A DNA stretch of 64,000 bases from Oscillospiraceae bacterium (GTDB lineage Bacteria; Bacillota; Clostridia; Oscillospirales; CAG-382), in the NCBI GenBank assembly GCA_015063885.1, contig SVTH01000001.1:91182-155181 (forward strand), read 5' to 3'. The stretch's first letter is position 1, and each line of letters opens with the position of its first letter. The position numbers were made by a program, and so were the translations under genes. Below are positions 43,182 through 64,000 of the stretch, piece after piece. Under the pieces are notes generated by a model, which worked only from the letters and a program-made list of their open reading frames with translations, did not search any database and was not told the origin of the DNA.

Positions 43182-46100
43182 TTAACCTATCTGCTGCATC
43201 AACAGAACGCAGTCGTAAATGGTCAGCACGCCGTCGAAGTCAAAGTCGAACAATGCCTCCGACTCCGTGTTGCCCACCAGGATGGACAGGAGCAGCTGTG
43301 CGTCCCCTTCGGTAACCGCGCCGTCCCCGTCCACGTCGTAATCGACCGCCTTTTCACGGCTCTCCACCTCACCGCAGACGCGGCAAGTACGTTCCTCCCT
43401 GCCGGGCGCACCGTCAGTCCAATCGCTCCAATCGTGCCCTGCCGCAGGAATCACTTCCTCCTGCAGAACAACGCCGCAATGGATGCAGACCTCTTGCTTC
43501 AACCCGTCCTCGGAACAGGTGGCTTCCTTTGCAACCACCCATTCTCCGCCGTGCTGAGCGCAAGGCTCCGCCGTGCGGAACTCAACGGGCTTCTTGCAAA
43601 CAGTGCAATACCGTGCTTCCACGCTGTCCTCGCCCTGCTCACCGGGCAGATACAGCTCCCAATCGGAAAGCACGTGAGCACAACCCACAGACTGAACGCC
43701 CGTGCCGTTGCCCTGCACCTCGTCTACCCGACGGAACCTGCCGCACTCGGAGCACACGAAGTAATACGCCCGATCGCCCTCGTACCCGAACAGCAGATCC
43801 AGCAACTTCTCGATCAGGATCCGCAGCCAGGACTTGGCAACGTACTTCTTCTCGTACTTGTGCGCCGTCTTGGGAATGCTTTCCCGCACCTGACGCCCGC
43901 ACTCTTCGCAGGTGTAAAGCGCCGTCCCCTCCTGATCGCAGGTAGGCTCCTTGACCACCTTCGGGGTGTAACGATGCCCCGCGGCGGGAATCACTTCCGT
44001 TTCCTCCAGACCGCATTCCCCGCAAGAACGGACCTTCAACCCTTCCTTCTTGCAGGAAGCAGGGATATCCGCCGTCCACTCACCAAAGGCATGCCCCTTG
44101 GCAGGCGTCACGTCGGTTCTCACCTCGCGGCCGCAGGTGCCGCAGGTATGGAGCACGTAACCCTCCTCCGTACAGGTGGGCTGTACGGTGACGGAGGTAT
44201 CACTGTGTCCCAAAGCCTCCACGTGATCCGTACCGTAATACTCGTCGCAAACGGTACAGGTGTGCTTGTAGAAGCCCTTTTCCTCGCAGGTGGGCGCCAC
44301 CCAAACGGCCTCGCCGTAAACGTGTCCGTCACCGTGATGCTTCCAGGAAGCGTAGATGGTCACGTCGCCCGTCACGGTCATTCCTTCGTAGTGGTTGCTC
44401 CACCCCAGGAAATCGTGCCCCTTCTTCTCGGGCGCCTCGGGCAACACCACCAAACTGCCGTAGGGCAGGGTAGCGGTGTGGTAAACCTTGCCGTTCAGAT
44501 CTCCGAAGGTCACGGTGTAAAGTTTCTGAACCTTCTCTACGATGGGGCGGACCTCCAGATCCACCGCCGTGGTTGCGGGGATGTGATCCGCTATCCAGTC
44601 GCCGTCCAGATCCCAGCCCTTCACAACGTAGGAGAACCCTTCTTCTCCTTCCGGCTCGTAAACGGGTAGCCGAATGATCTCGCTGTTCAGCTTGGGCTCA
44701 CGGCTGATCACGTTCCCCTCACCGTCGTAGAAGGTCACCCAGCTCCATTCATCTCCGTAAACCACCTTGTTTCCGTTGCTCCACCCCGGGAAGTTATCGT
44801 CCCACCGCAGATCCTGCTCCAACGCCTCCACGTAAATGGTAATCCCGGTGATGTTTTCTGATGTGAAGAGGGTTTGGCAATGCCGCAGATCGGAGGGAGA
44901 AACAGTATCGCAGATCACAACGCTTTTCAGCGTCAACGGGAGATTGTACAAACCACTTGTAAATTCATCTATTTTATAGATGAAAAGAGTTTCGACGTTG
45001 GTGGGTAAATCATTTAAATGATGCCAAATCGCCTGTTTAAGCATATTACATCCTTGGTATGCACTATAGCAAACGCCTCGAATCCCGTCTATTTTGCTCA
45101 TATATTCGCAATTTTCTGACAATTCAATCAACCAACCGTCGATGATAATTCCTTGGGAGCATTGATACTTAGGGTTGTTGAACAATTTGGTACAGCCGAA
45201 GAATGGCGACAGACCAAGGCTTTCCAAACTTTCGGGAAGGTTAATGCTTTCTAAGTTAGAGCAATTCTCAAAGGCACCTTCTCCAATGGATCTAATGTTA
45301 TCCGGAAGCGTAATGCTGGTTAGGTTGTTGCATCCGCTAAAAGCCTTCTCATCGATATAGGTGACACTGCCCGGTATGACAATACTTGTTAGTCCTGTGC
45401 GGTTTTTAAACGAACTATGTCCAATGTAGGTCACACCGAAGGGAATCGAAACACTTCCTTGGATTCTGGCGGGAACGTAAATAATTCTTGTGCCATCCTT
45501 AGAATACAGAACGCCATCGTAGGAAGAAAATGTTGGGTGATCTGCCGCAACGGTAATTCTCTGCACTCCGCTTTCGGTTCCAAACGTAGGGATTGATGTT
45601 ATTTCATTCGGAATAATAACTTCCTTGACGCCGCAGAAATTATGAATTGAATAAGTAACGCCATTAATGCTCGTGGGAAGCTCTACTGCATCCAATTCTC
45701 CGATGTATGCTATCAATGTATACCGATCTTTTTCGTAGATAAAGCGGAAACCCTCTGCGGTATCAACATAGGTGCTCTTGCTGTTTTCATCTAACCAAAT
45801 TTTGTTTCCGTTGGCATCTGTTACAACTTTTGAATAATAGCCGACATAGCCTGCGGCTTCGCTTCCGGGTATAATCGTAAGGGAGCTATTATTAACTACC
45901 TCAAACAAATTGACGCAGCCGTTAAACGCATTGGTATTAATTGCAACCACGTTTTCGGGAATTGTAATTTTCGTTAATCCGGAGCAACCGAAGAACATCG
46001 ACCAACTGAGCGCCTTCAAATTCTCGGGCAACGTAACTTGAGTAAGGTTGCAACAACCGCTAAAGATACTTTCACCAACATCGGTTACATTTTTACCAAT

Positions 46101-49100
46101 ATAGACCGTTCTTAAATTTTGGCAATCCATAAACGCTTGAGTCTCAATCCGAGTCACGCTATCGGGGATCGTAATGCTGATCAACTTGTTTGATCCGGTA
46201 AACATATGTGCTGGAATTGTCGTGATTCCTTCGGGAAGAATCACATTTCCCGGAATCTCATCGGAAACGTAAACAATTCGCGTCAGCTCTTTGTCGTAAA
46301 GGATCCCGTCCTTCCAGACAAAAGCGTTGTTACTGCTTGACACTTCCAACTTAGTGCTTTGGGGGAACGCACTCTCTCCAATACTAGTTACCGTATCGGG
46401 AATCGTGATAGACTTTAGCTTGTAGCAATACATGAAAGCGCCGTAGTCAATTGCAGTTAAGCCTTCAGGCAAAGTGACAGTGCTCAAATTTTCGCATTGA
46501 CTGAATGCCCACGCTCCGATTGCAGTAACCCTATCGGGAATTGTAATTTCGGTCAGGCTACCGCAAAAACGGAACGCATACCCTTCGATCCGTTCAACAC
46601 TGCTCGGAAGCTCAATGTGTTTCAAACTGCTGCAGCCGCTAAAAGCTTCGATAGGAATTGTTGTTATGCCATACGGAATGTTGATGCTTGTTAAACTACT
46701 GCACCCCAAAAATGCATGATCGTAAATAACAGATAGGTTGTTGGGAAGCGCGATGTTTAGCAAACTACTGCAGTTTCTAAAAGCCGCCCCGCTAATTTGG
46801 GTTAAGCTGTCCGGAAGGGAGACGCTTGTCAAATGAATGCAATTCGAAAATGCATTAGAACCAATCCGCGTAACTCCTTCCGGGATTACGATGCTTCTTA
46901 ACTTTACGTTCTCGGAAAAAGCAGAATCGGGAATCTGTGTTATTCCGTTCGGCAAACTCAAATTTTCCGGAATCTTGTCGCTGACAAATATGATTTTTTT
47001 AAAGTCTGCGTCATATAGGATACCGTCAAGCATCCGATACGCTGTATTTGAGCCGACAAAAGCCACATCCGTGTTTTTTGAAAACGCATTTTCGCCAATG
47101 TCGCAAACGCTTTCCGGAATGTCAATCTTTGCTAATTTGGGACACTGCACAAAGGCACGCGTTTCTATTGTAGAAACAGTATTCGGAAGAGAGACCGATC
47201 CCAAATTATCGCAACCTTCGAACACACCACAGCTTATTTGCTGCACTCCTTCAGGGATTTCTATCTCCGACAAGCTTGAGCAATTGGCAAAAGCATAGAC
47301 TTCGATGGTTTTCACTCGTTCGGACATTTTAATGGATTTGAGGTTAGAGCACTGACTAAACGCCATCACGCCTATTTCAGTTACACTATTCGGTAGAGTC
47401 ACACTTTTAATAGATTTGTTTTCATAAAAAGCATATTCATCGATACGGACTCTCCCTTCGGGAATGACCACATTTACGCCGCCGATAAAACGATCTATTT
47501 TGTAGGGGTTACCGTTTATATCTTTGGGTAAAGCAATCGTTTCCGATAAACCTTTATATGCGCACAGTGTATAGGTGTTATCCGAATCTTTCGTGAACAA
47601 GAATTGGTCGCTTGTTTCTATGTATTCGATTCCTGTATCCACATAGTTCTTATTTCCATCTCTATCAACGATCAAATTTGCGTTTACAGCAATCCCACCG
47701 TAAGAATCGCTTCCCAGCTGCAGATCAAGTGTGCTATAATTATAGATAGTTCGAAGATCACTGAACTCGAACGCATATGATTCGATGTTTTTCAGATTGG
47801 CGCCCAATGTGATCATGCTTAGGCCGCTCCAAGAGAAGGCCTTTTCTTCAATCGTGATAACGTTATCCGGTATGACGATATTCTGTAATTTATAACAACC
47901 ATCGAACGCTTCTGCACCGATGTAGGTTACTCCTTCAGGAATTTCGACTATCGCTAAGTTATGACACAGACGGAAGGTTCCTTTTTCAATTGATGTGAGG
48001 CCTTTCGGGAGGGATACCTTATACAAATTTGAGCAACCTCCAAATACTCCATAGTCCATAGTTGTAACACTATCGGGGATCTCAAGTGTCTCAAAGCCCG
48101 AGCCGGCAAAGGCGCACAATTCTAAGGTAGTTAAACTATTCGGAAGGATCAGCTCCGTGATATTATGAACATTTTCAAATGCATAATACCCGATAGATGT
48201 TGTTTCTTTCGAAAGCTCCAATCTTCCTTGTATGCCGGAACCAAAGTGCCCTTTGTAAGGTTTTACCACTACTTTCTTTTGGAAAGTATCATACCAATAT
48301 GCCGTGATCACATTCGTCAACTCATATTTCGCCGTCGTCTCCGCAAAAGCATTTTCGTGTAATACACTTACAGAATGGGGCATGTTGATGGTTTCCAAGC
48401 CGAGACAGTAAGCAAACCCACCGGTATAAACCGCGGTAATCCCCTCCGTAATGGTCACGGTTTTCAAGCTTTCCGGCACGTAAGTCTCGTTCGCTTCATA
48501 CGCTCCCGCACCAAAGATATAACCAAACCAAGAGATCTCCTCGTCCTCGTAAGAGGCGCCGATAAAGGGCAGGGTGACCTCGGTGAGCTTGTTGCAATCC
48601 TCAAAAGCGCCGATGCCGATGATCAGCTCCTTCTTGTTGGTGTCCGGGATGGTCAGCTTGGTGATGTCCGTGCCCAGGAAGGCGTACGCCCCGATATCGA
48701 TGAGCGTCTCGGGAGCGGTAAACTCCCCGCCGATGGAGGTATACGCAAAGGCATAGTCATAGATCCCCTTGACGGCGTTGCTTTCGCCCAGGGGCAGGGA
48801 AGTGATCTTAGCGCACCCGTAGAAGGCGAAATCCGAGATCTCCACGATGGCATCGGGAATCACGATGTTCTCCAGATTGATATCCCCGCAGAAAGCGCCC
48901 TCGTAGATACCCTTCAGACAGTTGCCCTTTGCAAAATTCACGGTGTGCAGCTTTTCGCAGTAAGCGAATGCGTAGTAGTCAATAGACACCACGCTGGCAG
49001 GGACGTGGATCACGGTCAGATTCTTCGCCCGGAAGAAAGCACGGTAGCCAAAGGTCAGAATGTTGGCATTAGGATCAAACAATACCTCCTCCAGCGCCGT

Positions 49101-50804
49101 GTTCTCAAAGGCGCCGAACCCGATCTCCTCCACGGAGATCGGCACCGTCAAAGAGCCCGTTCTGCCCGCCGGCACGGTGACCAGCTTTCTGCCGTCCTTG
49201 GAAAGGAGCAGTCCGTCCACCGCCTTGAAGTTGGGGTTATTCCCGTCCACGGTGATGGCGGTAAGGTTTTCCAGGCCCACGAAGCAATATTCCCCGATAT
49301 ACGTCACGTTGGCGGGGATATGCAGGCTTTCCAGCCCCGTGTTGTAGAACACGTTGCTTTGCAGCTTCAGCCCTGCGTTGTTGCCGAAGGTCACGGACTT
49401 CAGCGTCAAAATATCCCGGAAGGCGTTGTGCCCTACGTTGACCACGCTGTCGGGCAGGACGACGGAAACCAGCTTCGTCCCCATAAAGGCGTTCTTGGGG
49501 ATCTCCGTCAGAGCAAAGCCCTCTGCAAAGGTCAGGGAGGTCAGTCCGCTTTCCATAAAGACGCCGGTTCCCAAAGCGGTCAGGGATGCGGGCAGCTTCA
49601 CGGAGGTCAGCTTCTCCGTCCCCCGGAAAGCATACTGCTCAATCACGGAAACGGCAGCACCCTTTTCGAAGGTAAGGCTCTGAAGCTCCGAATACGCAAA
49701 GGCCTCACGCCCGATGAAGGTCACGGAAGCGGGAATGGCAATTTCCCTCAAAGCGGCGTATTGGAACGCCTCCGCCTGAATGGTGGTCAAGGTCTCGGGC
49801 AGGATCACCTTTTCCGCCGTGCTGTCCTTGAAAGCCCCGCCGCCGATGGTGGTAATGGGCGCACCAAGGTTGACGGTAGTGAGATCCACCGTCTTTTCCG
49901 TACCTAAGTATTCCAGAATCGCAAGATTCCCGGAGCCGAGAACCGCATAACGGAAGTCTCCCGCCGTTTCAACAGCGGAAACTCCGGTGTAATAGCCGCG
50001 AATGCCGTAATCCCAGTTTTCATCCAGGTATGCGGGCATGGTCTCGGCTTTCATATAAAGGTCAAGATCGTTCGTCCCCAGGAAGGCGTAGCTTCCGATG
50101 TGCTCAACACCTTCGGGAAGCGCCAGATCGGAGAGGGACTTACAACCGTAGAAGGCGTATCTTCCCACACTCTTCACGGAGTCGGGAAGGGAGAGGGAAG
50201 TGAGGCTTTCACAGAAGCGGAAGGCGAAGTTGTCAACGTTTTCCGGCTTCGCATCTCCGAAGTCCACGTAGCTCAGCTTGTCCATCCCCTCCAAGCCGTG
50301 GGCCTGGATAGAAGTCAGCTTGCTTCCGGGAAGGAAGGTAATCGTTTGCAAATTCTCGCACCCGTCGAACATGTAAGCGGAGATGCTCTCCAGCTTGCTG
50401 TTTTCCGCAAAGGTGATGGCGGAAAGCGATCTGCTTCCCACAAACGCCTCCTGCGCAATGGTGGAAACGCTTGCGGGCACGGTGAAGGATTGCAGCCCCG
50501 TATAAGCAAAGGCGGCAAAACCGATCCGGGGAAGCCTTGCGGTCTCGTTGAAGGTTACGGAATACAAATTCCAATCCTCCGCAAAGGCGTACCGCCCGAT
50601 CTGCAAAACGTTATCGGGAATATGGATATTTGTCAGATCGGTACAGGAAGAAAATGCGTATTCCCGGATCTCTGCCAAGGAGTCGGGCAACGTGATATAG
50701 TCGATCCCGGATGCGCAAAAGCCGTACTCACCCAACAAGGTCAACCCTTCGGGAAGAACGGCGGTGACCAGGTTCTTCGTACCCGCAAAGGCGTACGCCG
50801 CCAC
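43182..50804 (-). CDS. 3' segment of giant surface protein: BspA-type leucine-rich repeats, InlB-B repeat, Cys-rich repeats, C-terminal dockerin
   Basis: 2540-aa ORF with no signal peptide of its own. Dozens of repeats of the form IP..V..IG..AF..C..L. YTVTFGDLNGKVY...GHDFLGWS. Five to seven GH..PTC.eeG...C..CG repeats. DYDVDGDGAVT...DFDFDGVLTIYD (dockerin). The reading frame stays open upstream to 50864, into the 5' segment. Confidence 0.75.
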   Translation of the reverse strand: MAAYAFAGTKNLVTAVLPEGLTLLGEYGFCASGIDYITLPDSLAEIREYAFSSCTDLTNIHIPDNVLQIGRYAFAEDWNLYSVTFNETARLPRIGFAAFAYTGLQSFTVPASVSTIAQEAFVGSRSLSAITFAENSKLESISAYMFDGCENLQTITFLPGSKLTSIQAHGLEGMDKLSYVDFGDAKPENVDNFAFRFCESLTSLSLPDSVKSVGRYAFYGCKSLSDLALPEGVEHIGSYAFLGTNDLDLYMKAETMPAYLDENWDYGIRGYYTGVSAVETAGDFRYAVLGSGNLAILEYLGTEKTVDLTTVNLGAPITTIGGGAFKDSTAEKVILPETLTTIQAEAFQYAALREIAIPASVTFIGREAFAYSELQSLTFEKGAAVSVIEQYAFRGTEKLTSVKLPASLTALGTGVFMESGLTSLTFAEGFALTEIPKNAFMGTKLVSVVLPDSVVNVGHNAFRDILTLKSVTFGNNAGLKLQSNVFYNTGLESLHIPANVTYIGEYCFVGLENLTAITVDGNNPNFKAVDGLLLSKDGRKLVTVPAGRTGSLTVPISVEEIGFGAFENTALEEVLFDPNANILTFGYRAFFRAKNLTVIHVPASVVSIDYYAFAYCEKLHTVNFAKGNCLKGIYEGAFCGDINLENIVIPDAIVEISDFAFYGCAKITSLPLGESNAVKGIYDYAFAYTSIGGEFTAPETLIDIGAYAFLGTDITKLTIPDTNKKELIIGIGAFEDCNKLTEVTLPFIGASYEDEEISWFGYIFGAGAYEANETYVPESLKTVTITEGITAVYTGGFAYCLGLETINMPHSVSVLHENAFAETTAKYELTNVITAYWYDTFQKKVVVKPYKGHFGSGIQGRLELSKETTSIGYYAFENVHNITELILPNSLTTLELCAFAGSGFETLEIPDSVTTMDYGVFGGCSNLYKVSLPKGLTSIEKGTFRLCHNLAIVEIPEGVTYIGAEAFDGCYKLQNIVIPDNVITIEEKAFSWSGLSMITLGANLKNIESYAFEFSDLRTIYNYSTLDLQLGSDSYGGIAVNANLIVDRDGNKNYVDTGIEYIETSDQFLFTKDSDNTYTLCAYKGLSETIALPKDINGNPYKIDRFIGGVNVVIPEGRVRIDEYAFYENKSIKSVTLPNSVTEIGVMAFSQCSNLKSIKMSERVKTIEVYAFANCSSLSEIEIPEGVQQISCGVFEGCDNLGSVSLPNTVSTIETRAFVQCPKLAKIDIPESVCDIGENAFSKNTDVAFVGSNTAYRMLDGILYDADFKKIIFVSDKIPENLSLPNGITQIPDSAFSENVKLRSIVIPEGVTRIGSNAFSNCIHLTSVSLPDSLTQISGAAFRNCSSLLNIALPNNLSVIYDHAFLGCSSLTSINIPYGITTIPIEAFSGCSSLKHIELPSSVERIEGYAFRFCGSLTEITIPDRVTAIGAWAFSQCENLSTVTLPEGLTAIDYGAFMYCYKLKSITIPDTVTSIGESAFPQSTKLEVSSSNNAFVWKDGILYDKELTRIVYVSDEIPGNVILPEGITTIPAHMFTGSNKLISITIPDSVTRIETQAFMDCQNLRTVYIGKNVTDVGESIFSGCCNLTQVTLPENLKALSWSMFFGCSGLTKITIPENVVAINTNAFNGCVNLFEVVNNSSLTIIPGSEAAGYVGYYSKVVTDANGNKIWLDENSKSTYVDTAEGFRFIYEKDRYTLIAYIGELDAVELPTSINGVTYSIHNFCGVKEVIIPNEITSIPTFGTESGVQRITVAADHPTFSSYDGVLYSKDGTRIIYVPARIQGSVSIPFGVTYIGHSSFKNRTGLTSIVIPGSVTYIDEKAFSGCNNLTSITLPDNIRSIGEGAFENCSNLESINLPESLESLGLSPFFGCTKLFNNPKYQCSQGIIIDGWLIELSENCEYMSKIDGIRGVCYSAYQGCNMLKQAIWHHLNDLPTNVETLFIYKIDEFTSGLYNLPLTLKSVVICDTVSPSDLRHCQTLFTSENITGITIYVEALEQDLRWDDNFPGWSNGNKVVYGDEWSWVTFYDGEGNVISREPKLNSEIIRLPVYEPEGEEGFSYVVKGWDLDGDWIADHIPATTAVDLEVRPIVEKVQKLYTVTFGDLNGKVYHTATLPYGSLVVLPEAPEKKGHDFLGWSNHYEGMTVTGDVTIYASWKHHGDGHVYGEAVWVAPTCEEKGFYKHTCTVCDEYYGTDHVEALGHSDTSVTVQPTCTEEGYVLHTCGTCGREVRTDVTPAKGHAFGEWTADIPASCKKEGLKVRSCGECGLEETEVIPAAGHRYTPKVVKEPTCDQEGTALYTCEECGRQVRESIPKTAHKYEKKYVAKSWLRILIEKLLDLLFGYEGDRAYYFVCSECGRFRRVDEVQGNGTGVQSVGCAHVLSDWELYLPGEQGEDSVEARYCTVCKKPVEFRTAEPCAQHGGEWVVAKEATCSEDGLKQEVCIHCGVVLQEEVIPAAGHDWSDWTDGAPGREERTCRVCGEVESREKAVDYDVDGDGAVTEGDAQLLLSILVGNTESEALFDFDFDGVLTIYDCVLLMQQIG

Positions 50805-53706
50805 CGTGGTGACGGCAGGCTGAAGAACGTATTCCGTCTCCGTCCGTCCTGCGGGATAGGTGTATCATCCTATCGGAAAGATCGTATACAACGCCGTCAA
50901 GATCGTGGTAAACGGTATTGCCCTCCTCCACGTGAACTGCCGTCAGCAGTGGGCAGAAAGCAAATGCACCGTTCCCCAGCACGGAAACGCTTGCGGGAAC
51001 CGTCACTTCTCTCAACGCCGTTTCTGCGAAGGCAAGCTTCCCCACAGACTCCAGCCGCCCGGGAAGGCGGATCTCTTCAAGAATAGCGCAGCCCCTAAAG
51101 GCGGATCCCCCGATCACCCGAAGACTGCTGTTTTCACCGAAGGATACCTTCGCCAAAGGGTTCCCGATGAAGGCTTCCGTTCCGATCTCTGCGACGGAAT
51201 CGGGGAACTCGATCTCTCTGAGGGAACAGGTAGCAAAGGCGTTTTGGTCGATGAGAGACAGCGTGCTGTTTTCCGCAAATGCGATCTTTTCCAGTCCGCT
51301 TTGCGCAAACGCCCCGGACCCGATATAGCCGATTCCCGCGGGAATGGTGATCTCTCGGAGCGATGAACAGGAATTGAAGCAGTAAGACGCCACATCCGTC
51401 AGTCCGTTCCCCAAGGTCACGGACCCAAGATCGCGGTTGGCGGCAAACGCACCCTTGCCCAGGGAGGCAACGTTGTCGGGAATCACCAGCTCCTGCAGAA
51501 GAGCGCCTTCAAAGCCGTAGCTTCCGATGGCTTCCACACTGCCGAGCTCCACGTTCGTCAGCCGTGCAAAGGCAAAGGCATAGTCGGCGATGGTTTTGGT
51601 ATTTTCATGCACCGTGTAGCTGTTGCCGTGTGCGGCGGGATAGGCCGCCAACACGCTTTGCGTGGTGTTGTAAAGTACGCCGCCGTCGGAAACGAACAGA
51701 GCGTTCCCTGTCTGCACCTTGATCTCGTAAAGGGAAAGATCCCCGTAGAAGGCAGTTGCGTTGATTCCTTCCAGCGAGGCGGGAAGCTCAATGCTTCTCA
51801 AGCTTCCGCAATGGCTGAAGGCAAAAATCCCCACCGTCTTCAGCTTGCTCTGCCCCGTAAACGCCACGGTGGAAAGACGGATGTTTTCCGTAAAGGCAAA
51901 TTCGCCGATGGTGACGACGTTCTCGGGGATATAAATGCTCAGCAAATTGGAGCATCCCTCAAAAGCATAACGCTTGATGGTCGTCAGTCCGGCAGGCAGG
52001 CCTACCTCGCGGAGACGGGTCTGTCCCGCAAAGGCAAATTCGCCGATAGAAGACACAACCTTCCCATTGATCTTCTCGGGGATGGTAATGTATCTCCGTC
52101 TGCCGGTGTAGGAACGGATCTCGATGGTGCCGTCCTCCAGCTCCACGTAGGTAAAGGGCACGCCGTCCTCCTCGTTGGCCCACTTGGCGTACAAGGTAAT
52201 ATCGTCGTAAAATGGATCTTCGTAGTATACGTATTCCTGGGTAAAGGTATCGTCGTAATACCATCCGTCAAAAACGGTGTAAAGTCTCTCCGGCTCGGGG
52301 AGCTGCTGCAGGGTGTGTCCCCGGATAAACAACGCTTCCTCGTTTTCCAGCTCATCGGTGAGCATTTCAAAGGTCACCGTGTTCCGCTCCTCCAGCAAAA
52401 GGGCGTGGAGATCAAGGGCGCCGAAGCCGTAGGTCCAGTCTTCACCCGGATCTCCCAGGTCCCGGCAGGAGGCATACAGCACCTCCGTCACGTCCTTGAC
52501 TGTGGTATAGGGGGTGTTCTGCATCAGCAAAGCCAGCCCGCCCGCCACCACAGGGGAGGCCAGAGAGGTGCCGTTCATATTGCCGTAAGCTCCGTGGATC
52601 AAAGCCGTGTAGGTGGTACCGGGAGCAACCAGATCCAGGTTGTCCCCATAGTTGGAGTAGGGCGCAAGCTCCCAGCCGTCTGCTTCCAAAGCGCCGACGC
52701 CAATGACGTTGGGGTCTGCCGCAGGCCAGCAAAGGGAAGTGGTGCCGTCGTTCCCCGCCGCCGCCACGCAGACGATATCGCTGTCAACGGCAAGCTGTGC
52801 TGCCTCCGCAAAGGGATTTACGGGAGAATACGTACCGAAGGACATATTCACCACCTGAACGTCCCGCTCGATGACGTAGTAAAGGCCGAACACCAGATCG
52901 GAGGTGCGATAGAAGGTGCCGTTTGCATCGCACTCCGCCTTGATCACCAGGATCTCCGCATAAGGGGCAATACCCACCACGTTCCCGCTGTTCATGGACG
53001 CGGCAATAACGCCCGCCACGGCGGTACCGTGTCCGACTTCATCTTCTACCAAGGACCAGTCGTAATTCCCGTTTTCATCCGCCCAATCCTTGACGATTTT
53101 ATCCTCGGTGGCGTTGTAGGAATACTCGCTGATCCTTCCCGCAAATTCGGGATGGTCCGTATCAATACCCGTGTCGATCACGGCAACCGTTACGCCTGCA
53201 CCGTTGCAGCTGCTCCAGACGTCCTGCATGTTCAGGTAGTCCAGATAAGTCTGCAGCTCGTAGTCGGTATCGCTCACCGTATATTGCGGACGGGTAGGCA
53301 ACCGTTCATCAGAGTCCCCCGCGCCGTCTGCGTCGCTGATACGAACCTGATAGTCCACAGCCATCTTTTCCAGATGCTCCAGATTCTCCTCGTCCGCATA
53401 CACGTCCCGAATGGTGACCCCCTCGGGTAACGTCAGCGTGGCAAACCGCCCGTCTTCCGTAATGCGGAGCTTGGCGCCGAAAAGATCCGCCAGCTCCTCC
53501 GCATTCGCCTTGGACGTCTGATTCAGCACGATGCTCTGCTCGTCGTACGTGCCGATATTCCGCTCCAATTCCTCCAAAGCGGAATTGCGCAGCTCCTCCA
53601 GCTCCGAACGGCGTACCGACTGCTTCAGCAGGACCGCCGCCAAAGCAGAAGTCGCCAGCACCAGCACCAGAATGACCGCCAAAACGATTCTTCCTTTGCG
53701 TGTCAT
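50728..53706 (-). CDS. 5' segment of the same gene: signal-anchored subtilisin-like S8 serine protease, InlB-B repeat and BspA-type LRRs
   Basis: 992-aa ORF. MTRKGRIVLAVILVLVLATSALA, VAVIDTGIDTDHPEF (Asp), GHGTAVAGVIAA (His), NGTSLASPVVAG (Ser), VFDGWYYDDTF, then LRRs. The last ~43 aa (SRRTDGDGIRSS...) look like out-of-frame read-through. Confidence 0.8.
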   Translation of the reverse strand: MTRKGRIVLAVILVLVLATSALAAVLLKQSVRRSELEELRNSALEELERNIGTYDEQSIVLNQTSKANAEELADLFGAKLRITEDGRFATLTLPEGVTIRDVYADEENLEHLEKMAVDYQVRISDADGAGDSDERLPTRPQYTVSDTDYELQTYLDYLNMQDVWSSCNGAGVTVAVIDTGIDTDHPEFAGRISEYSYNATEDKIVKDWADENGNYDWSLVEDEVGHGTAVAGVIAASMNSGNVVGIAPYAEILVIKAECDANGTFYRTSDLVFGLYYVIERDVQVVNMSFGTYSPVNPFAEAAQLAVDSDIVCVAAAGNDGTTSLCWPAADPNVIGVGALEADGWELAPYSNYGDNLDLVAPGTTYTALIHGAYGNMNGTSLASPVVAGGLALLMQNTPYTTVKDVTEVLYASCRDLGDPGEDWTYGFGALDLHALLLEERNTVTFEMLTDELENEEALFIRGHTLQQLPEPERLYTVFDGWYYDDTFTQEYVYYEDPFYDDITLYAKWANEEDGVPFTYVELEDGTIEIRSYTGRRRYITIPEKINGKVVSSIGEFAFAGQTRLREVGLPAGLTTIKRYAFEGCSNLLSIYIPENVVTIGEFAFTENIRLSTVAFTGQSKLKTVGIFAFSHCGSLRSIELPASLEGINATAFYGDLSLYEIKVQTGNALFVSDGGVLYNTTQSVLAAYPAAHGNSYTVHENTKTIADYAFAFARLTNVELGSVEAIGSYGFEGALLQELVIPDNVASLGKGAFAANRDLGSVTLGNGLTDVASYCFNSCSSLREITIPAGIGYIGSGAFAQSGLEKIAFAENSTLSLIDQNAFATCSLREIEFPDSVAEIGTEAFIGNPLAKVSFGENSSLRVIGGSAFRGCAILEEIRLPGRLESVGKLAFAETALREVTVPASVSVLGNGAFAFCPLLTAVHVEEGNTVYHDLDGVVYDLSDRMIHLSRRTDGDGIRSSACRHHGGGVRLCGYEEPGHRRSSRRVDLVG

Positions 53707-55169: not shown

Positions 55170-55851
55170 CGGGGGAGTGATGCATATGTACGCAAAGTGT
55201 TTCAAGCGCATCATCGACTTTACCCTGTCTCTCATCGCCCTTGCTATTCTCCTGCCGGTTCTGCTGCTTTTGGCTATCATCGGCGCCATTGCTATGAAGG
55301 GCAACCCCTTCTTCGTTCAGCCCCGCCCGGGGAAAAAGGACAAAAACGGCAAGGAGAAGATCTTCAAGCTCATCAAGTTCCGTACCATGTCCAACCAAAA
55401 GGACAAAAACGGCAACCTCCTCCCCGACGATGCTCGCCTGAATAAATACGGCAAATTCCTGCGTTCCACCTCCCTGGACGAGCTCCCCGAGCTGCTGAAC
55501 ATCCTCAAAGGCGACATGGCCATCGTCGGCCCGAGGCCTTTGTTGGTCAGTTATTTGCCTTATTATACTGAAGAAGAGCGTAAAAGACATGATGTTCGTC
55601 CGGGTCTTACTGGATTGGCACAAGTTAGTGGAAGAAATACGGTTTCATGGGAAAAGAGATTTGAGCTGGATGTGGAATATCGTGACAATATAACTTTTAT
55701 GAATGATGTAAAAATAATCATCAACACCGTAAAAGCCGTTCTTTCTCACGATAGCATAGAATTGAATGCGTTGGAGAATTTTGATGAATATAGAAAAAAA
55801 CAAGCAGATAATGCCGACACTGATGCAGTCGTTGGGACGATTCAAAAATAA
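55162..55851 (+). CDS. Initiating undecaprenyl-phosphate sugar phosphotransferase (PglC/WbaP C-terminal type)
   Basis: 229 aa. KRIIDFTLSLIALAILLPVLLL, KFRTM, SLDELPELLNILKGDMAIVGPRPLL, RPGLTGLAQV. The start could be 55180 or 55186. GC content drops sharply at about 55545 inside the gene. Confidence 0.9.
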   Translation: MTDGGVMHMYAKCFKRIIDFTLSLIALAILLPVLLLLAIIGAIAMKGNPFFVQPRPGKKDKNGKEKIFKLIKFRTMSNQKDKNGNLLPDDARLNKYGKFLRSTSLDELPELLNILKGDMAIVGPRPLLVSYLPYYTEEERKRHDVRPGLTGLAQVSGRNTVSWEKRFELDVEYRDNITFMNDVKIIINTVKAVLSHDSIELNALENFDEYRKKQADNADTDAVVGTIQK

Positions 55852-56725
55852 TAATCTGTATATTAAGCGAGATGATTTGTTACCATTTTCTTTTGGTGGA
55901 AACAAAGCAAGAAAGGCAATGTATTTTCTTGATGATATAAAAAGAACGAACTCTGATTGCATTATTACATATGGCAGTAACAGTAGTAATCATTGTCGAA
56001 TCATTGCTAATCTGGCGGCGTCGCTGAGAGTAAAATGTATAATCATTTCGCCTGAAGAAGATGATGGGTCTACATTTAATTTGCAGATGTTGAATTATTT
56101 TGGGGTGGATATAATCCGTTGCGCCATATCGAATGTCTCAAAAACAATAGAAGATACAGTTGTTGCGATGAAATGTCAAGGATATACTCCATATTTTATT
56201 ATGGGGGGAGGACATGGTAATTTAGGCACTCAAGCTTATGTTGATTGCTTCTCTGAAATTATGAATTATGAAAGCGACCATAACATTCAATTTGATTGCA
56301 TTTTTCACGCTTCGGGTACAGGGACAACGCAGGCGGGCCTTGTATGCGGGAAGCTATTGAATAACCATAATACAAAAATTATCGGAGTGAGCATTGCCAG
56401 AAGGAATCCCAAAGGCAAGCAGATCGTGTTAGATAGTGTAAATGAATATATGACCTCGGTAGGCTTTACGGATGATTATGCTGGACAAGTTGAACTGATA
56501 GACGATTATGTTCTTGATGGTTACGGGAAATATAACACAGAAATAGATCAAACAATCCAAAATGTCCTAACGGACTATGGTATCCCCTTAAACAGAACAT
56601 ATACAGGAAAGGCATTCTGGGGGATGGAAAAGTATTTAGAGAAAGAAAGCATTGAAAACAAGAATATTCTGTTTGTTCATACAGGAGGAACACCTTTGTT
56701 CTTCGATTATTTGAGGCGGATGTAG
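55784..56725 (+). CDS. PLP-dependent enzyme of the ACC deaminase / D-cysteine desulfhydrase family
   Basis: LYIKRDDLLPFSFGGNKARKAMYFLDD (Lys for PLP), HASGTGTTQAG, HTGGTP. The start is uncertain (55766/55784/55814/55826). Low GC. Confidence 0.7.
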   Translation: MNIEKNKQIMPTLMQSLGRFKNNNLYIKRDDLLPFSFGGNKARKAMYFLDDIKRTNSDCIITYGSNSSNHCRIIANLAASLRVKCIIISPEEDDGSTFNLQMLNYFGVDIIRCAISNVSKTIEDTVVAMKCQGYTPYFIMGGGHGNLGTQAYVDCFSEIMNYESDHNIQFDCIFHASGTGTTQAGLVCGKLLNNHNTKIIGVSIARRNPKGKQIVLDSVNEYMTSVGFTDDYAGQVELIDDYVLDGYGKYNTEIDQTIQNVLTDYGIPLNRTYTGKAFWGMEKYLEKESIENKNILFVHTGGTPLFFDYLRRM

Positions 56726-56727
56726 AG

Positions 56728-57690
56728 ATGAATATTTTATTATTAAGTGTCGGAACTCGCAATAAGATAGTTCAATATTTTAAGAAAACCGTTGGTGTTA
56801 CTGGCAATGTAATCGCCACCGATATGAGTGAACTTGCATCGGCTGTATATGAAGCGGATAAGTTTTACAAAGTCCCTCGAATGACCGATGATGGTTATAT
56901 TGATGTTGTTTTTGATATTTGTAAGAAAGAGAATATCGGAAGTGTGTTGACTTTAATTGATCCAGAGCTTTCGCTGCTTGCAAAGCACAAAGACAAATTT
57001 GCAGAACTCGGAGTAAAAGTTATTGGTTCTTCATACGAACTATGTGAACGAGCGCTTGACAAAATGGAAATGTACAATTGGCTTACAATTCATGGGTATA
57101 ACTGTGCAAAGAGCTATATAAACAAAGAAAAGTTCTATGCGGACGTAGATGCTGGAATCATTACATATCCGGTATTTGTAAAGCCTGTTCGAGGAAGTGC
57201 AAGTATTGCCATTTCCAAGGTTTACGATAAAGAAACAGTTGAGTTGCTTTTTGCACATAATGATAACTTGATGATTCAAGAATTTCTTGACGGACAGGAA
57301 ATCGGTGCCGATGTATATATTGATATGCTCAGTAGAGAAACTGTGTCGATCTTTACCAAAAAGAAAATTGTAATGCGTGCTGGCGAAACAGATAAAGCTG
57401 TCTCTTTCAAGGATGAAAAATTATTTGCACTAATTGAAAAATTCGCAAATGAAAGCGGTTGGTTGGGACAAATTGACATTGATATTTTTGAGGTCAATGA
57501 AGAGTACTACATATCTGAAGTGAATCCTCGATTTGGCGGTGGCTATCCTCATGCGCATGAGTGCGGATGCGATCATGTTGCCATGATATTGAAAAATCTT
57601 TGCGGAATTGCTAACGAAAAAAAGATAGGCTCATACGATAGTGATGTGTACATGATGAAATACAACGAGTTAATGTTGAAAAAGGCATAG
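56728..57690 (+). CDS. ATP-grasp family ligase
   Basis: 320 aa. Pre-ATP-grasp N-terminus (ILLLSVGTRNKIV), YPVFVKPVRGSASI, MIQEFLDGQEIGADVY, EVNPRFGGGYP. Confidence 0.8.
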   Translation: MNILLLSVGTRNKIVQYFKKTVGVTGNVIATDMSELASAVYEADKFYKVPRMTDDGYIDVVFDICKKENIGSVLTLIDPELSLLAKHKDKFAELGVKVIGSSYELCERALDKMEMYNWLTIHGYNCAKSYINKEKFYADVDAGIITYPVFVKPVRGSASIAISKVYDKETVELLFAHNDNLMIQEFLDGQEIGADVYIDMLSRETVSIFTKKKIVMRAGETDKAVSFKDEKLFALIEKFANESGWLGQIDIDIFEVNEEYYISEVNPRFGGGYPHAHECGCDHVAMILKNLCGIANEKKIGSYDSDVYMMKYNELMLKKA

Positions 57691-57694
57691 AAAA

Positions 57695-58045
57695 ATGAAC
57701 ATTGTGTTTCTTACCATTGGTTCATTCAACAGTATTGAAGACCACTCCATATATACCGATCTGCTGAGAACCTTTCGAAACAATGGGCATGACATATACG
57801 TTGTGTGCGCAAATGAAAAGCGCGAGGGAAAACCTACCGAGTTTCTACACGAAAGTGGAATCCACCTTCTTCGTGTAAAGAGCGGAACGGTTAGTATTGG
57901 TGAAAACACATGGATTGGCGCAGGAGCAACAGTCGTTAATAACGTGGACATTTGCCCCGATTGTTTGATCGGTGCAGGGGCTGTGGTTGTCAAGACCATA
58001 CGTGAACCCGGTAAATATATAGGAGTTCCTGCGAGAATTAAATAA
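57695..58045 (+). pseudogene. Chimeric remnant: GT4 N-terminal fragment fused to the C-terminal hexapeptide-repeat acetyltransferase fragment
   Basis: 116 aa. Residues 1-62, MNIVFLTIGSFNSIEDHSIYTDLLRTF..GHDIYVVCA...GIHLLRVK, resemble a GT-B N-terminus. Residues 63-116, SIGENTWIGAGATVVNNVDICPDCLIGAGAVVVKTI.EPGKYIGVPARI, resemble a left-handed beta-helix tail. Too short for either fold. Confidence 0.5.
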
Positions 58046-58064
58046 CGAGGTTTGAGGAGTAACT

Positions 58065-58913
58065 ATGTCCCTTACGCTCATGTACATCACGAACAACCCT
58101 CAGGTTGCCGCTATTGCACAAAAAGCGGGCGTAGACCGTATTTGGGTTGATATGGAATATATTGGAAAAGAAGACCGCCAAAAAGGTATGAATACCGTCA
58201 AGTCGTTCCATACCGTCGAAGACGTTCGTGCATTACGCTCTATCGTAACCTGCTCGCAACTGATGGTGCGTGTCAATCCTTGGCATTGTGCGACGGATGA
58301 ATACGGTTCCTCTGAGGAGGAAATTGATGCTGTAATTGATGCCGGCGCTGATGTGATCATGCTTCCGTATTTCAAAACGAAAGCAGAGGTTACGAATTTT
58401 ATTCGTTGCGTCAACGGTAGAGCCACTGCTATGATTTTGGTGGAAACTGCGGAAGCTGTGTCAAGCATTGATGAGATCCTTTCAGTCCCGGGGATCGATG
58501 AGGTGCATATTGGTCTCAATGATCTTCATCTTGCATATGGGATGAAGTTCATGTTTGAATTGCTGGCGGATGGCACCGTTGAAAAGCTGTGCAAAAAAAT
58601 CGCCGCTAAAGGTCTTAAATACGGCTTTGGCGGAATCGCCAGAGTCGGATACGGAATGCTTCCGGCGGAGTATATCATGGGGGAGCATTATCGCTTGGGC
58701 TCAACGCGTGCTATTTTATCTCGCGGTTTTTGTGATGCAAATATTGTTGCCGATCCTTCTACGATTGAAAACATCTTTATTGAAGGCGTAGAGAATATTC
58801 GAAAGAAAGAAAAGGAACTCGAGCATCTCTCTTTGGAACAGTTTGCCGAGAATCGCTGGATCGTAGCTCAAAAAGTCCGGGAAATAGTAAAAAGCAAGGA
58901 ATCTCTTGGATGA
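58065..58913 (+). CDS. HpcH/HpaI aldolase / citrate-lyase-beta-like family protein
   Basis: 282 aa. GVDRIWVDMEY, MVRVN, AGADVIMLPYFKTKAEV, ILVETAEAVSSIDEILSVPGIDEVHIGLNDL. Confidence 0.6.
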   Translation: MSLTLMYITNNPQVAAIAQKAGVDRIWVDMEYIGKEDRQKGMNTVKSFHTVEDVRALRSIVTCSQLMVRVNPWHCATDEYGSSEEEIDAVIDAGADVIMLPYFKTKAEVTNFIRCVNGRATAMILVETAEAVSSIDEILSVPGIDEVHIGLNDLHLAYGMKFMFELLADGTVEKLCKKIAAKGLKYGFGGIARVGYGMLPAEYIMGEHYRLGSTRAILSRGFCDANIVADPSTIENIFIEGVENIRKKEKELEHLSLEQFAENRWIVAQKVREIVKSKESLG

Positions 58914-60067
58914 AAAAAATTTGTATGATCACGACCGTTTCCGGAACGTTGGAATCTTTCGTGGTCGAAATTGCCAAACATTTATACCATACTTGTGGGT
59001 ATGACATAACCTTGATATGTAATCATGACGAGGCCTTTGCGAATCAGTTGCCGAAGTATCTCCATTATATTCCCGTGAAAATGGAGCGGGGTATCAATTT
59101 ATCCGGATTCGCTTCGATCAAGGAGTTTCGCCGCATCTTTCGAAGAGAGAAATTCGATCTTGTTCAGTATGCGACACCCAACGCATCCTGCTATGCAAGT
59201 ATAGCAGCTAAACTTGAGCGGATTCCCATTAGGCTTTACTGTCAATGGGGGATACGATATGTTGGCTTGCACGGGCTAACAAGAAAGATCTTTAAGCGGA
59301 TCGAGAAAACGGTTTGCAAGCTCTCAACGCACATTCATTGCGCAAGTCACGGGAATATGCAATTCGCGGTGCGAGAAAAATTATACCCTGCTACGAAAGC
59401 GAGCGTTGTTGGAAACGGCGGTACGATTGGCGTAGATCTGGAAGAATATAATATCGCAGAAAAGGCTGCGTGGCGAACAGAAATCAGATCCAAGTATAAC
59501 CTAACAGATTCCGATTTCGTGTTTGGCTTTGCAGGCAGAATCTCTGTTGATAAGGGTTGCAATGAACTTATTGCGGCGTTTCGCATCGCTTCTCAAGATG
59601 TACCTTCCGCCAAGTTATTGATAGTTGGTCCGTTTGAGGATAATTGCGGCTTGCAAGACGAATTGCTGAGTTTCGCTAAAGCTTCCGAGCAAATAATTTT
59701 TACCGGCCGAGTTGCAAAAGGCGACATGTGCAAGTTTTATGCTGCAATGGACGTTCTTGTCCATCCTACCTATCGAGAAGGGTTTGGTATGGTAATTCAG
59801 GAAGCGGGTGCACTTGCAGTTCCGGTTATCACGACTAAAATACCGGGTGCTTCTGAAGTTATGGAAGACGGCGTGTCTTGTATGCTCGTTGAACCGAAGA
59901 ACATCGACGATTTGTTGCGTGCTATGAAAGAAGTATATTCCTGCCCGCAAAAAGTTTGCTTTTTGGGTGAAAATGCTCGTCTGAGAACGGAAGCTTTATA
60001 TGAACGTTCTGCAATGCTTGAGCAGCAAAGAAAGGAATATGTCAAACTATTGTCGTTGAAGCAATAG
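58910..60067 (+). CDS. Glycosyltransferase family 4 (GT-B)
   Basis: 385 aa. C-terminal EGFGMVIQEAGALAVPVITTKIPGASEVMEDGVSCMLVEP (E-x7-E-type motif). Confidence 0.85.
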   Translation: MKKICMITTVSGTLESFVVEIAKHLYHTCGYDITLICNHDEAFANQLPKYLHYIPVKMERGINLSGFASIKEFRRIFRREKFDLVQYATPNASCYASIAAKLERIPIRLYCQWGIRYVGLHGLTRKIFKRIEKTVCKLSTHIHCASHGNMQFAVREKLYPATKASVVGNGGTIGVDLEEYNIAEKAAWRTEIRSKYNLTDSDFVFGFAGRISVDKGCNELIAAFRIASQDVPSAKLLIVGPFEDNCGLQDELLSFAKASEQIIFTGRVAKGDMCKFYAAMDVLVHPTYREGFGMVIQEAGALAVPVITTKIPGASEVMEDGVSCMLVEPKNIDDLLRAMKEVYSCPQKVCFLGENARLRTEALYERSAMLEQQRKEYVKLLSLKQ

Positions 60068-60088
60068 AGTTGAAACGGTTAAGTCGGT

Positions 60089-61354
60089 ATGCCATCTCCT
60101 AAGATTCTAGTAATTACAGTTGCTTCGTGGAATTCAAAAGTTGGTTCCAACACGTGGACTTCTTTGCTAAGATGCTATTCCGCAGAAAATATTGCCAACC
60201 TCTGTATTCGTGACGAAATTCCCGATAGCCCTGTTTGTTCTCGTTATTTTTCCATTTCCGAAAACAAAATAATTAAAAGCGTTCTTCGTCGTTCTTTGAA
60301 AACGGGAAGAGAGCTTTCTACAAACATGTCCATAGAATCGACTCGCGATTTGATGGAACATAACGCCCGCTACAACCAAATGCGAAAAAAGCGGCGTTAT
60401 TCTATGCTTTTAGCGCGAGAATTTATTTGGAAAGTTGGCAAATGGCACACGAAAGAGCTGGATGACTTTCTCGATGATTTTAAACCGGATATTATTCTGC
60501 ATTCCATGGAAGGATATATCCATTTGAATCGGATCACAATGTATGCCATTCGTCGAACCGGAGCAAAAGTGATCGGTTATATTTGGGATGATAACTTTAC
60601 GTATAAGCAGTCCAAAAAGATAGGATACAAATTTTACCGTTTTTTTCAGAGACGTTCCTTGAAAAAGCTGGCTAAAAACACGTCGGATTTTTTTGCCATT
60701 TCGCCTTACACCAAGAAAGAAGCGGATGCATTTTTTGGAATTGATTGTAAAATACTTACGAAGCCGCTTAGCAGAATTCCCCGGGAATATGAATTCCGAG
60801 TCAGGAATCCTTTGAGAATTCTTTACACCGGAAATCTGTTAATAGGACGCGACAGAAGCTTGGTTCGTTTTGTTAATGCCCTAAAGAAAATGCCTGCCGA
60901 TTTTGCCGTTGTAGACGTTTATACGCAAACGAATCTTTCTGACGAGATTATGTGCGCCCTTGATCCTGCTCTATGTACGGTGCACGAGCCGATTCCGCAA
61001 AGCGAGGTTCTTAAAAAACAAGAGGAAGCAGATATCCTGTTGTTCCTGGAAGATATCGATGGTCCGGATGCTTTGGTCGCAAGGCTCTCTTTCTCTACCA
61101 AAATCACAGACTATCTATCTGCGGGCAAACCGATTTTTGCAATTGGAAACCAAGATACCTCACCAATGCATTACTTAGCAACCAATCATGCAGCAGTCAT
61201 CGCTTGCTCCGATGAGGAGATCTTACAGCGATTGAAAGAAATTCATGGTCGACCTTCATTACTGCGGGATATTGTTAGCTGTGCAAATAATGCTGCAGTA
61301 ATGAATCATGATCCTGCATTGATAAAAAAAGTCTTTGAAACCGTTGTTTTTTGA
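60089..61354 (+). CDS. Polysaccharide-locus protein of unknown function (possibly GT-B-like)
   Basis: 421 aa, low GC, no TM helices. KILVITVASWNSKVGSNTW at the N-terminus. No motif I can assign. Confidence 0.5.
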   Translation: MPSPKILVITVASWNSKVGSNTWTSLLRCYSAENIANLCIRDEIPDSPVCSRYFSISENKIIKSVLRRSLKTGRELSTNMSIESTRDLMEHNARYNQMRKKRRYSMLLAREFIWKVGKWHTKELDDFLDDFKPDIILHSMEGYIHLNRITMYAIRRTGAKVIGYIWDDNFTYKQSKKIGYKFYRFFQRRSLKKLAKNTSDFFAISPYTKKEADAFFGIDCKILTKPLSRIPREYEFRVRNPLRILYTGNLLIGRDRSLVRFVNALKKMPADFAVVDVYTQTNLSDEIMCALDPALCTVHEPIPQSEVLKKQEEADILLFLEDIDGPDALVARLSFSTKITDYLSAGKPIFAIGNQDTSPMHYLATNHAAVIACSDEEILQRLKEIHGRPSLLRDIVSCANNAAVMNHDPALIKKVFETVVF

Positions 61355-61392
61355 ATCGCTGAGCTCATTTTCTGTTATCCTGGGAGTATAAA

Positions 61393-63650: not shown

Positions 63651-64000
63651 CCGTCCTTTTCCTTTCCAATTACTTCAATCATCACCAAAAGCCCTTTTGT
63701 GACGCTATGTTCCGTCTTCTGGGTGAGTCATACCATTTTGTTGAGACGGAGCCCATGGATGACGAGCGGAAAAGCCTGGGGTGGGGTGGTATCACATATC
63801 CCTCTTACGTCATTAGCCCGGAGGAGGCCTTTACCCCCGAGACGCAGGCCATGATCGATTCTGCGGATGCGGTCATCATCGGCTCGGCTCCCAATTCCTT
63901 GGTGAAGAACCGCATTCGCAAGGGAAAACTGGTTTTCCGCTATTCGGAACGCCCTTTTAAGAAAGGCATGGAGTGGAAAAAATACCTTCCGCGGCTGGTT
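63647..64000 (+). CDS. 5' part of a further polysaccharide-locus gene running off the window
   Basis: ATGA overlap with the previous gene. 118 codons with no stop (MTVLFLSNYFNHHQKPFCDAMFRLLGESYHFVETEP...). Function not recognisable. Confidence 0.5.
   Translation, partial: MTVLFLSNYFNHHQKPFCDAMFRLLGESYHFVETEPMDDERKSLGWGGITYPSYVISPEEAFTPETQAMIDSADAVIIGSAPNSLVKNRIRKGKLVFRYSERPFKKGMEWKKYLPRLV

Follow-up and report, generated by a model that had tools for sequence, protein, structure and literature searches.

Results

Two adjacent reading frames are halves of one giant gene

On the minus strand of the window, the 64,000-nucleotide stretch of DNA analysed here, two long open reading frames of 992 and 2,540 aa meet out of frame, which raises the question of whether they represent two genes, one gene joined by recoding, or one gene that has been broken, either in the DNA or only in the assembly. 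In public annotation the halves are entered as separate proteins (MBE6578281.1, 992 aa, and a neighbour of ~2,517 aa) and not as a pseudogene. Inspection of both minus-strand frames confirms the two frames and their out-of-frame junction as described in the first-pass annotation of this DNA, and the evidence presented below makes it quite probable that the locus has undergone an ordinary recent disruption, leaving a young pseudogene or truncated allele that reflects neither a two-gene design nor programmed frameshifting. Coordinates of all features are collected in Table 1.

Table 1. Features of the disrupted gene, in window coordinates
Feature	Position	Strand	Content or basis
ORF1, 992 aa	50728..53706	-	S8 protease, Flg_new and LRR_5; Pfam and translation
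2-bp (CC) deletion, site between 50864 and 50863	50863..50864	-	Alignment with intact alleles
Downstream continuation, +1 frame	43182..50864	-	2,559 sense codons plus stop after repair
Strain-variable LRR cassette, within downstream part	43431..48470	-	Comparison with intact conspecific alleles

The product of the upstream frame, ORF1, is identical to MBE6578281.1. It opens with a hydrophobic N-terminal segment, followed at residues 169-429 by a Peptidase_S8 domain (PF00082; 179.2 bits versus a Pfam cut-off of 21.8) in which D178, H226 and S381 correspond to the catalytic Asp, His and Ser and are invariant in the family alignment. A Flg_new repeat of the Listeria-Bacteroides or InlB-B type occupies residues 443-508 (Pfam), and ~440 aa of BspA-type leucine-rich repeat (LRR) are matched by LRR_5 (PF13306) in three stretches totalling 243 bits against a cut-off of 27.7. 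The true frame of ORF1 ends ...DGVVYDLSDRMIH after residue 949; from there the reading runs out of frame for 43 residues to a TGA stop codon at 50730-50728.

The +1 frame is closed just 5' of the junction, as noted earlier, by a TGA at 50867-50865, and then reads YTYPAGRTETEYVLQ... and remains open without a stop to 43182. An open frame of 2,558 codons cannot be attributed to chance, and past the junction it continues the very LRR unit that is interrupted in ORF1. Pfam matches LRR_5 in 15 stretches of this downstream part (1,069 bits versus the cut-off of 27.7) and finds Flg_new a second time; Cys-rich modules of ~30 aa with the pattern C..C..C...GH, about five in number, are also present. At the C-terminus lies a type I dockerin match (Dockerin_1, PF00404) that at 22.2 bits falls just under the cut-off of 22.9 (E = 1.6e-4), with two loops visible, DVDGDG and DFDFDG. 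Apart from this marginal score, the previously proposed domain order of S8 protease, InlB-B type repeat, LRR and dockerin is matched by Pfam.

Three intact alleles of the same species, from strains ~98% identical to that of the window, each encode a single ORF of 3,671 aa, and one complete ORF of 3,126-3,806 aa, colinear with the joined protein, is found in 17 species-representative metagenome-assembled genomes (MAGs). Both sets bear out the earlier proposal that the two frames derive from one ancestral gene of ~3,500 aa. At least 60 MAGs of gut Clostridia share this S8-LRR architecture. These comparisons show the locus to be a single giant gene, predicted to encode a cell-surface subtilisin-type protease with a long BspA-type LRR and a dockerin-like C-terminus. 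It resembles fusions of BspA-type LRR (LRR_5) to a subtilase, with Pfam scores far above threshold for both parts; no characterised member of the giant S8-LRR-dockerin-like family was found in the searches made.

A two-base deletion interrupts an LRR unit

The frameshift had been described as a single-nucleotide event, an extra C at about 50859. Alignment with the intact conspecific alleles leads to a different lesion, about 5 nt upstream. The sequence is GATGAT-CC-ACACCTAT in those alleles and GATGAT-ACACCTAT in the window, or, in codons, ATG ATC CAC ACC TAT (MIHTY) versus ATG AT/A CAC C TAT, with the slash marking the site of loss. The DNA of the three intact alleles (L068, L069 and L070) has GATGATCCACACCTAT and the window has GATGATACACCTAT; the CC is found in all three and is missing from the window and from seven further loci that carry the same lesion. 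The lesion is therefore a 2-bp deletion; it affects codons 947-948, midway through an LRR unit. The His codon had been placed correctly at 50862-50860. When the CC is put back, a single ORF (...DRMIHTYPAGR...) with only a terminal stop results, and its product is 3,508 aa long rather than the 3,507 aa calculated before.

Spacing within the repeat leads to the same repair. Between GVVY and [YF]P.G, 49 of 50 homologues have nine residues and one has ten; restoring CC gives nine, in contrast to eight for a join through a one-base insertion. The nearest relatives read IHTYPAG or IHTFPAG at the junction, and P0123/MBQ8325009.1 and P0125 (3,671 aa) read ...DRMIHTYPAGRTETEY... across it. An extra C at 50859 is thus ruled out by the homologue spacing and by the intact alleles. 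Slippage of an AC dinucleotide, with one AC lost from CACAC (50863-50859), would produce the same protein, but it requires a second change, ATC>ATA, and a single CC deletion is therefore more parsimonious.

The deletion is real and recent

Sequencing error had been left open as the source of the frameshift. An artefact of this kind, in which the gene is truly intact and the 2-bp gap is a contig error, could be expected of MAG-type data and of long repetitive LRR genes, which are difficult to assemble. However, the identical deletion is present in at least seven other assemblies, namely JGI 3300032167, 3300018878, 3300024272, 3300024268 and 3300018495 and ENA ERZ27248351 and ERZ27248436, which fall in two sub-variants one amino acid apart, each with SNPs of its own. 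The deletion site is neither a homopolymer nor a repeat boundary, and ENA k141 assemblies with accession numbers neighbouring those of the carriers yield the intact allele from another sample. Contig error is thereby largely refuted and retains very little probability, and the recurrence of the deletion excludes the sequencing error considered earlier.

The deletion in the window is therefore real DNA, confined to one near-clonal lineage and evolutionarily recent. Carrier assemblies differ by 1-3 SNPs per 3.5-17.6 kb, and three of the four SNPs that fall inside the giant gene within this lineage are non-synonymous. The seven carriers may share a single source community or be re-assemblies of the same runs; the JGI sample identifiers are absent from the text and the examined supplements of a goat-faeces enrichment study (PMC8007473). 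The carriers establish the deletion in that population, which does not make it widespread. For the first-pass annotation, a true pseudogene or two-gene arrangement would have shown itself by reads confirming the lesion and orthologues that are also split: other assemblies do back the lesion, which is effectively what a true pseudogene predicts, and the orthologues are not split at the same site.

Selection on the downstream frame was assessed over codons 950-1745, where dN/dS is 0.05-0.08 between the window and the intact alleles and 0.089 between the intact alleles themselves, and where window-specific changes number nine synonymous and one non-synonymous. Low downstream dN/dS and the near-clonal carrier lineage together indicate that the lesion is recent, which is why the downstream frame is still open. 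An open downstream frame with strong signatures of purifying selection would be predicted by a very recent lesion and equally by continued expression.

The cassette within the downstream part shares no nucleotide similarity with the matching 5.5 kb in the intact alleles of the same species (~30% amino acid identity) and has a lower G+C (0.475 versus 0.565). Its flanks are blocks 98% and 96-97% identical to those alleles (98.2% and 96-97.5% for the window versus L068, L069 and L070). The giant gene also adjoins a strain-variable polysaccharide locus.

Predicted consequences for the protein

Ribosomes initiating at the native ATG would translate the signal or anchor segment, an intact protease domain and the first ~9 LRR units, and would then read 43 nonsense codons before the stop. 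The truncated product would be ~2,560 residues short, without the remaining LRR, the Cys-rich modules or the dockerin-like module that would tether it. The downstream 7.6 kb would either go untranslated or, through internal restart at a TTG or GTG, give a protein that lacks an export signal. Inspection of the translation together with a promoter scan reveals no evident start or export signal belonging to the downstream part, consistent with the earlier remark that this frame has no signal peptide of its own. Its earliest candidate starts are located within an LRR unit, and no hydrophobic leader comes after them. The mechanically called 2,540-aa frame begins at a GTG at 50804; gene callers choose a TTG start (50735 or 50738) that overlaps the stop of ORF1. 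The promoter scan found no promoter-like site on the minus strand in 50400-51300, and a terminator scan of the gene strand around the junction found nothing beyond a weak terminator-like hairpin, no more than chance would produce. Judged from these features, the downstream part probably either goes untranslated or yields a product that cannot be exported. Some coupled re-initiation could take place through a GAAGGG-N6-TTG motif just 5' of the stop of ORF1.

Alternative readings of the junction

The interrupted gene would yield the full-length protein through transcriptional slippage or through a programmed ribosomal frameshift of +1 (or -2), and both the fully open downstream frame with its purifying-selection signatures and the +1 direction of the shift, as in prfB-type recoding, agree with such a mechanism. 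The site, however, is not conserved, since the 98%-identical strains and all 50 homologues examined at the junction repeat are in frame there. Nor is there a slippery motif: the zero frame reads AUG AUA CAC CUA (UCC), which includes neither a stop nor a homopolymer, and it continues open for another 43 codons. The junction offers no repeat-tRNA slip, and a polymerase would find no homopolymer run to slip on. The likeness to prfB/RF2 frameshifting is limited to the direction of the shift that joins the frames, in that the gene lacks a conserved site, a zero-frame stop and a rare-codon pause with its Shine-Dalgarno stimulator; its orthologues are in frame. Recoding of either kind is thus exceedingly improbable.

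Less improbable, though still unlikely, is that the two parts function as separate genes or that the truncation is adaptive. Selection would here have favoured losing the LRR/dockerin part or the surface protein as a whole, possibly to escape a phage or host factor or during growth in culture, and coupled re-initiation at TTG 50735/50738 may produce the downstream ORF separately. The called TTG start that overlaps the ORF1 stop behind a GAAGGG is consistent with this arrangement, as are the strain-variable cassette in the gene with a strain-variable polysaccharide locus beside it, the independent frameshift or nonsense lesions in 12 of 60 homologous loci of other species, and the three non-synonymous SNPs among the four inside the gene in the carrier lineage. 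Against it, the downstream product would lack an export signal although it ends in a module of extracellular type, the break interrupts an LRR unit, and a test would need more than four SNPs. The homologue lesions amount to ~16 in ~480 kb of surveyed sequence, or, as a rough estimate, ~1 per 30 kb, which is within the ordinary pseudogene density of genomes and MAGs; because this density is ordinary, the 10.5-kb gene may simply be a large target. That selection, as opposed to neutral decay, removed or remodelled an exposed surface protein here is likewise unlikely, even though the swapped LRR cassette, the adjoining variable polysaccharide locus and the lesions in about one-fifth of homologous loci point that way. 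If true, phage or host pressure would repeatedly fall on the giant S8-LRR family, and inactivation would be a way to escape it.

Comparison with other disrupted surface-protein genes

Ordinary recent disruption places the giant gene among frameshift-disrupted genes for large surface proteins, in which a small out-of-frame deletion strikes a very long, repetitive and strain-variable gene. As in others of this class, a short junk tail follows the upstream part, the downstream frame is open, and alleles of sister strains are intact. Nothing about the gene is unusual for the class apart from its size (10.5 kb) and its split annotation, and no new mechanism is revealed. The result is mostly a correction of annotation: the two database proteins each represent half of a single 3,508-aa gene that the loss of 2 bp has disabled, and they are better read as a pseudogene or truncated allele. 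The locus also provides a natural comparison between ~98%-identical strains that have the protease with or without its LRR/dockerin-like part, which could help functional study of a widespread, uncharacterised giant S8-LRR family in herbivore-gut Clostridia.

Phase-variable contingency genes, which change by slipped-strand mispairing, share with the disrupted gene a change of frame that switches off a surface protein. In contrast to such genes, there is no simple-sequence repeat at the deletion site (TCCACACC) and no tract of at least three repeat units in the intact sequence (GATCCACACCTAT). Mixed on and off states are also absent at the assembly level, where all eight near-identical carrier sequences have the deletion and none has reverted. 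Lesions in the homologues likewise differ from those of contingency genes, being scattered over non-repeat sites and including nonsense codons. The in-frame stops of three homologous loci, TAA in L013 and L057 and TAG in L061, were considered as signs of an alternative code or readthrough; because they occur at sense-codon positions, they look like plain nonsense mutations.

Reading frames and the junction

Inspection of the minus strand reveals that ORF1 reads ...AVHVEEGNTVYHDLDGVVYDLSDRMIH up to the break and then ends in 43 residues without LRR character (LSRRTDGDGIRSS...DLVG), followed by a TGA at 50730-50728. The +1 frame carries a TGA at 50867-50865, continues as YTYPAGRTETEYVLQPAVTTVAAYAFAG... 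and stays open as far as 43182. The ORF translations and Pfam matches uphold the first-pass annotation in its coordinates, its two frames and its domain order. About five Cys-rich modules of ~30 aa each are visible in the translated downstream part, and the catalytic residues of the S8 domain (D178/H226/S381) are invariant in the family alignment.

Features of the split gene (residue numbers refer to ORF1, other numbers to the window)
Feature	Position	Strand	Details
ORF1	53706 to 50728	minus	992 aa
Peptidase_S8	ORF1 residues 169-429		Pfam, 179 bits
Flg_new	ORF1 residues 443-508		Pfam
LRR_5	ORF1		Pfam, 243 bits
LRR_5	downstream part		Pfam, 15 matched stretches, 1,069 bits
Flg_new, second copy	downstream part		Pfam
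Dockerin_1	downstream part, last 50 residues		Pfam, 22.2 bits, below cut-off of 22.9
Candidate downstream start, GTG	50804	minus	
Candidate downstream start, TTG	50738 or 50735	minus	gene-caller choice
Allelic cassette, 5 kb	43431-48470	minus	inside downstream part

Two intact 3,671-aa proteins from the same cluster as the 992-aa product, P0123 (MBQ8325009.1) and P0125, read across the break as ...DGVVYDLSDRMIHTYPAGRTETEYVLQPTV.... The junction is GATGAT CC ACACC TATCCC (ATG ATC CAC ACC TAT) in the intact alleles L068, L069 and L070, versus GATGAT ACACC TATCCC in the window and every carrier of the lesion. At the level of the aligned DNA, the allele difference is accounted for by a single 2-bp (CC) deletion, placed between 50864 and 50863 of the window, and putting CC back yields one 3,508-aa ORF whose sole stop is the terminal one. 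In the repeat at the break, the spacing from GVVY to [YF]P.G is nine residues in 49/50 homologues and ten in the other; CC repair gives nine, versus eight for the one-base-insertion join. The nearest species read IHTYPAG (ATC CAT ACC TAT) or IHTFPAG. The first-pass annotation had proposed an extra C in caCCta at ~50859. Its frame consequence was right, but the kind of lesion was wrong and the site lay ~5 nt off, since the intact alleles carry CC and both homologue spacing and nearest-species junctions agree with them. The Ile-His with which ORF1 seems to carry on past the deletion arises by chance from the shifted codon phase.

The 992-aa product, including its junk tail, is recorded exactly in several public assemblies (MBE6578281.1 in the cluster look-up, labelled "MAG: Ruminococcaceae bacterium / Oscillospiraceae bacterium"). 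Carrier locus L001 matches the window at 100% identity across 22,979 nt, and L002 differs by one base. Two more 992-aa variants of the product, each one residue different, are P0124 (C827R; JGI 3300024268, JGI 3300018495 and ENA ERZ27248351) and P0127 (S586T; ENA ERZ27248436); ENA ERZ27256818, from a neighbouring accession range, holds the intact allele. As judged from these sequences, random assembly error is excluded as the cause of the break because the junction is identical in all carrier loci, whose samples may not be biologically independent.

Age of the deletion and competing readings

The window and the intact-allele strains share 98.2% nucleotide identity over 55663-48471 and 96.4-97.5% over 43430-34462, and by nucleotide identity they are one species. 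For codons 950-1745, downstream of the break and still alignable, dN/dS is 0.05-0.08 for window versus intact alleles and 0.089 between intact alleles. Changes specific to the window lineage there number 9 synonymous and 1 non-synonymous, and this ratio, together with the low dN/dS, gives no sign of downstream decay. Within the carrier lineage only 1-3 SNPs occur per 3.5-17.6 kb. Given the lack of decay and the near absence of SNPs, the deletion is, on these comparisons, very recent relative to the synonymous divergence of roughly 3-4% between strains.

We take the locus as a textbook case of a young frameshift pseudogene, or truncated allele, of a giant strain-variable surface-protein gene. 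Programmed frameshifting was rejected, as the site lacks any slippery or pause motif and is not kept even between strains of 98% identity; phase variation was likewise rejected, there being neither a repeat tract at the site nor mixed states among the carrier sequences. Loss of the surface protein may have been adaptive, although none of the observations requires it. The result corrects the gene model and supplies a natural pair of strains, one intact and one truncated, with no new mechanism.

The native start and hydrophobic leader are still in frame with the protease domain and first LRR units. In the carrier lineage the protease would be truncated to 949 aa plus a 43-aa junk tail, lacking ~2,560 residues of LRR, Cys-rich modules and dockerin-like tether. 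No leader precedes the downstream part, and its first candidate starts fall within an LRR unit; the TTG starts follow a GAAGGG motif and overlap the stop of ORF1. A promoter scan around the junction (50400-51300) found no promoter-like site on the gene strand. Any re-initiated downstream product would be expected to remain in the cytoplasm.

Strain-variable regions

Upstream of the break (codons 1-947, 53706-50866), dN/dS is 0.24-0.30 for window versus intact alleles and 0.116 between intact alleles. Window-lineage changes number 9 synonymous and 14 non-synonymous, clustered in LRR units at ~aa 700-900, versus 17:6 and 10:4 in the two intact lineages; local recombination or diversifying change may lie behind this pattern.

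The 5-kb cassette shows no nucleotide similarity between strains (~30% aa identity) while both flanks are 96-98% identical, and its G+C falls to 0.475 (window) and 0.43 (L068), from 0.565 in the gene's conserved 5' part. This divergence between conserved flanks and the G+C drop suggest that the distal LRR region was replaced by recombination. Upstream of the giant gene, conspecific strains also differ in their polysaccharide-biosynthesis genes (window ~55700-63700 versus L068 1-8000), with PALP, ATP-grasp, Hexapep, HpcH, GT4 and EpsG in the window versus PglD-type, three GT4, Wzy_C and GT2 in L068. G+C is low (0.39-0.45) at 56-62 kb of the window. The DegT aminotransferase and CapD-like genes on the flanks of the giant gene are conserved between strains.

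State of the gene across the family

The family (S8, Flg_new, BspA-type LRR, Cys-rich modules and dockerin-like end) is widespread in MAGs of herbivore- and human-gut Clostridia, and we found no characterisation of it in the literature. Among species-representative genomes a pattern scan picked out 62 loci, 60 of which were analysed in six frames. In 17 of the 60 the gene is complete as a single ORF of 3,126-3,806 aa and colinear with the joined protein of the window (for example L009, 3,522 aa; L011, 3,372; L022, 3,536; L038, 3,806; L043, 3,382); 28 are uninterrupted up to the contig or locus end, 12 are interrupted and three have shorter ends (L036, L055, L062). All 12 interruptions arose independently and are scattered over positions other than the window's break. 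A split gene is thus not the normal state in this family. Nine of the interrupted loci carry frameshifts (L010, L015, L025, L030, L031, L041, L050, L058, L060), that of L025/P0009 being a 1-nt deletion, GAGT[A]TGCT, and three carry nonsense codons (TAA in L013 and L057, TAG in L061). Those of L013 and L061 sit a few residues apart in the S8 domain, at ~aa 395-399. A rough count gives ~16 lesions per ~480 kb surveyed, or ~1 per 30 kb, which does not clearly exceed the usual density of pseudogenes; at 10.5 kb, the gene is just a large target.

L015 and L030 share contig DODZ01000047.1 (Ca. Apopatosoma intestinale UBA11495). Several genomes hold two paralogous giant S8-LRR copies, one pair in tandem within ~15 kb; JAZUAW01, JAZSFA01, JAZNPH01, JAZNJA01 and JAZQYT01 have two loci each. 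For family member L044 (JAFVZR010000122.1), as for L066, the contig was assigned to the bin of Candidatus Methanomethylophilaceae archaeon, which probably reflects a binning artefact and not an archaeal gene.
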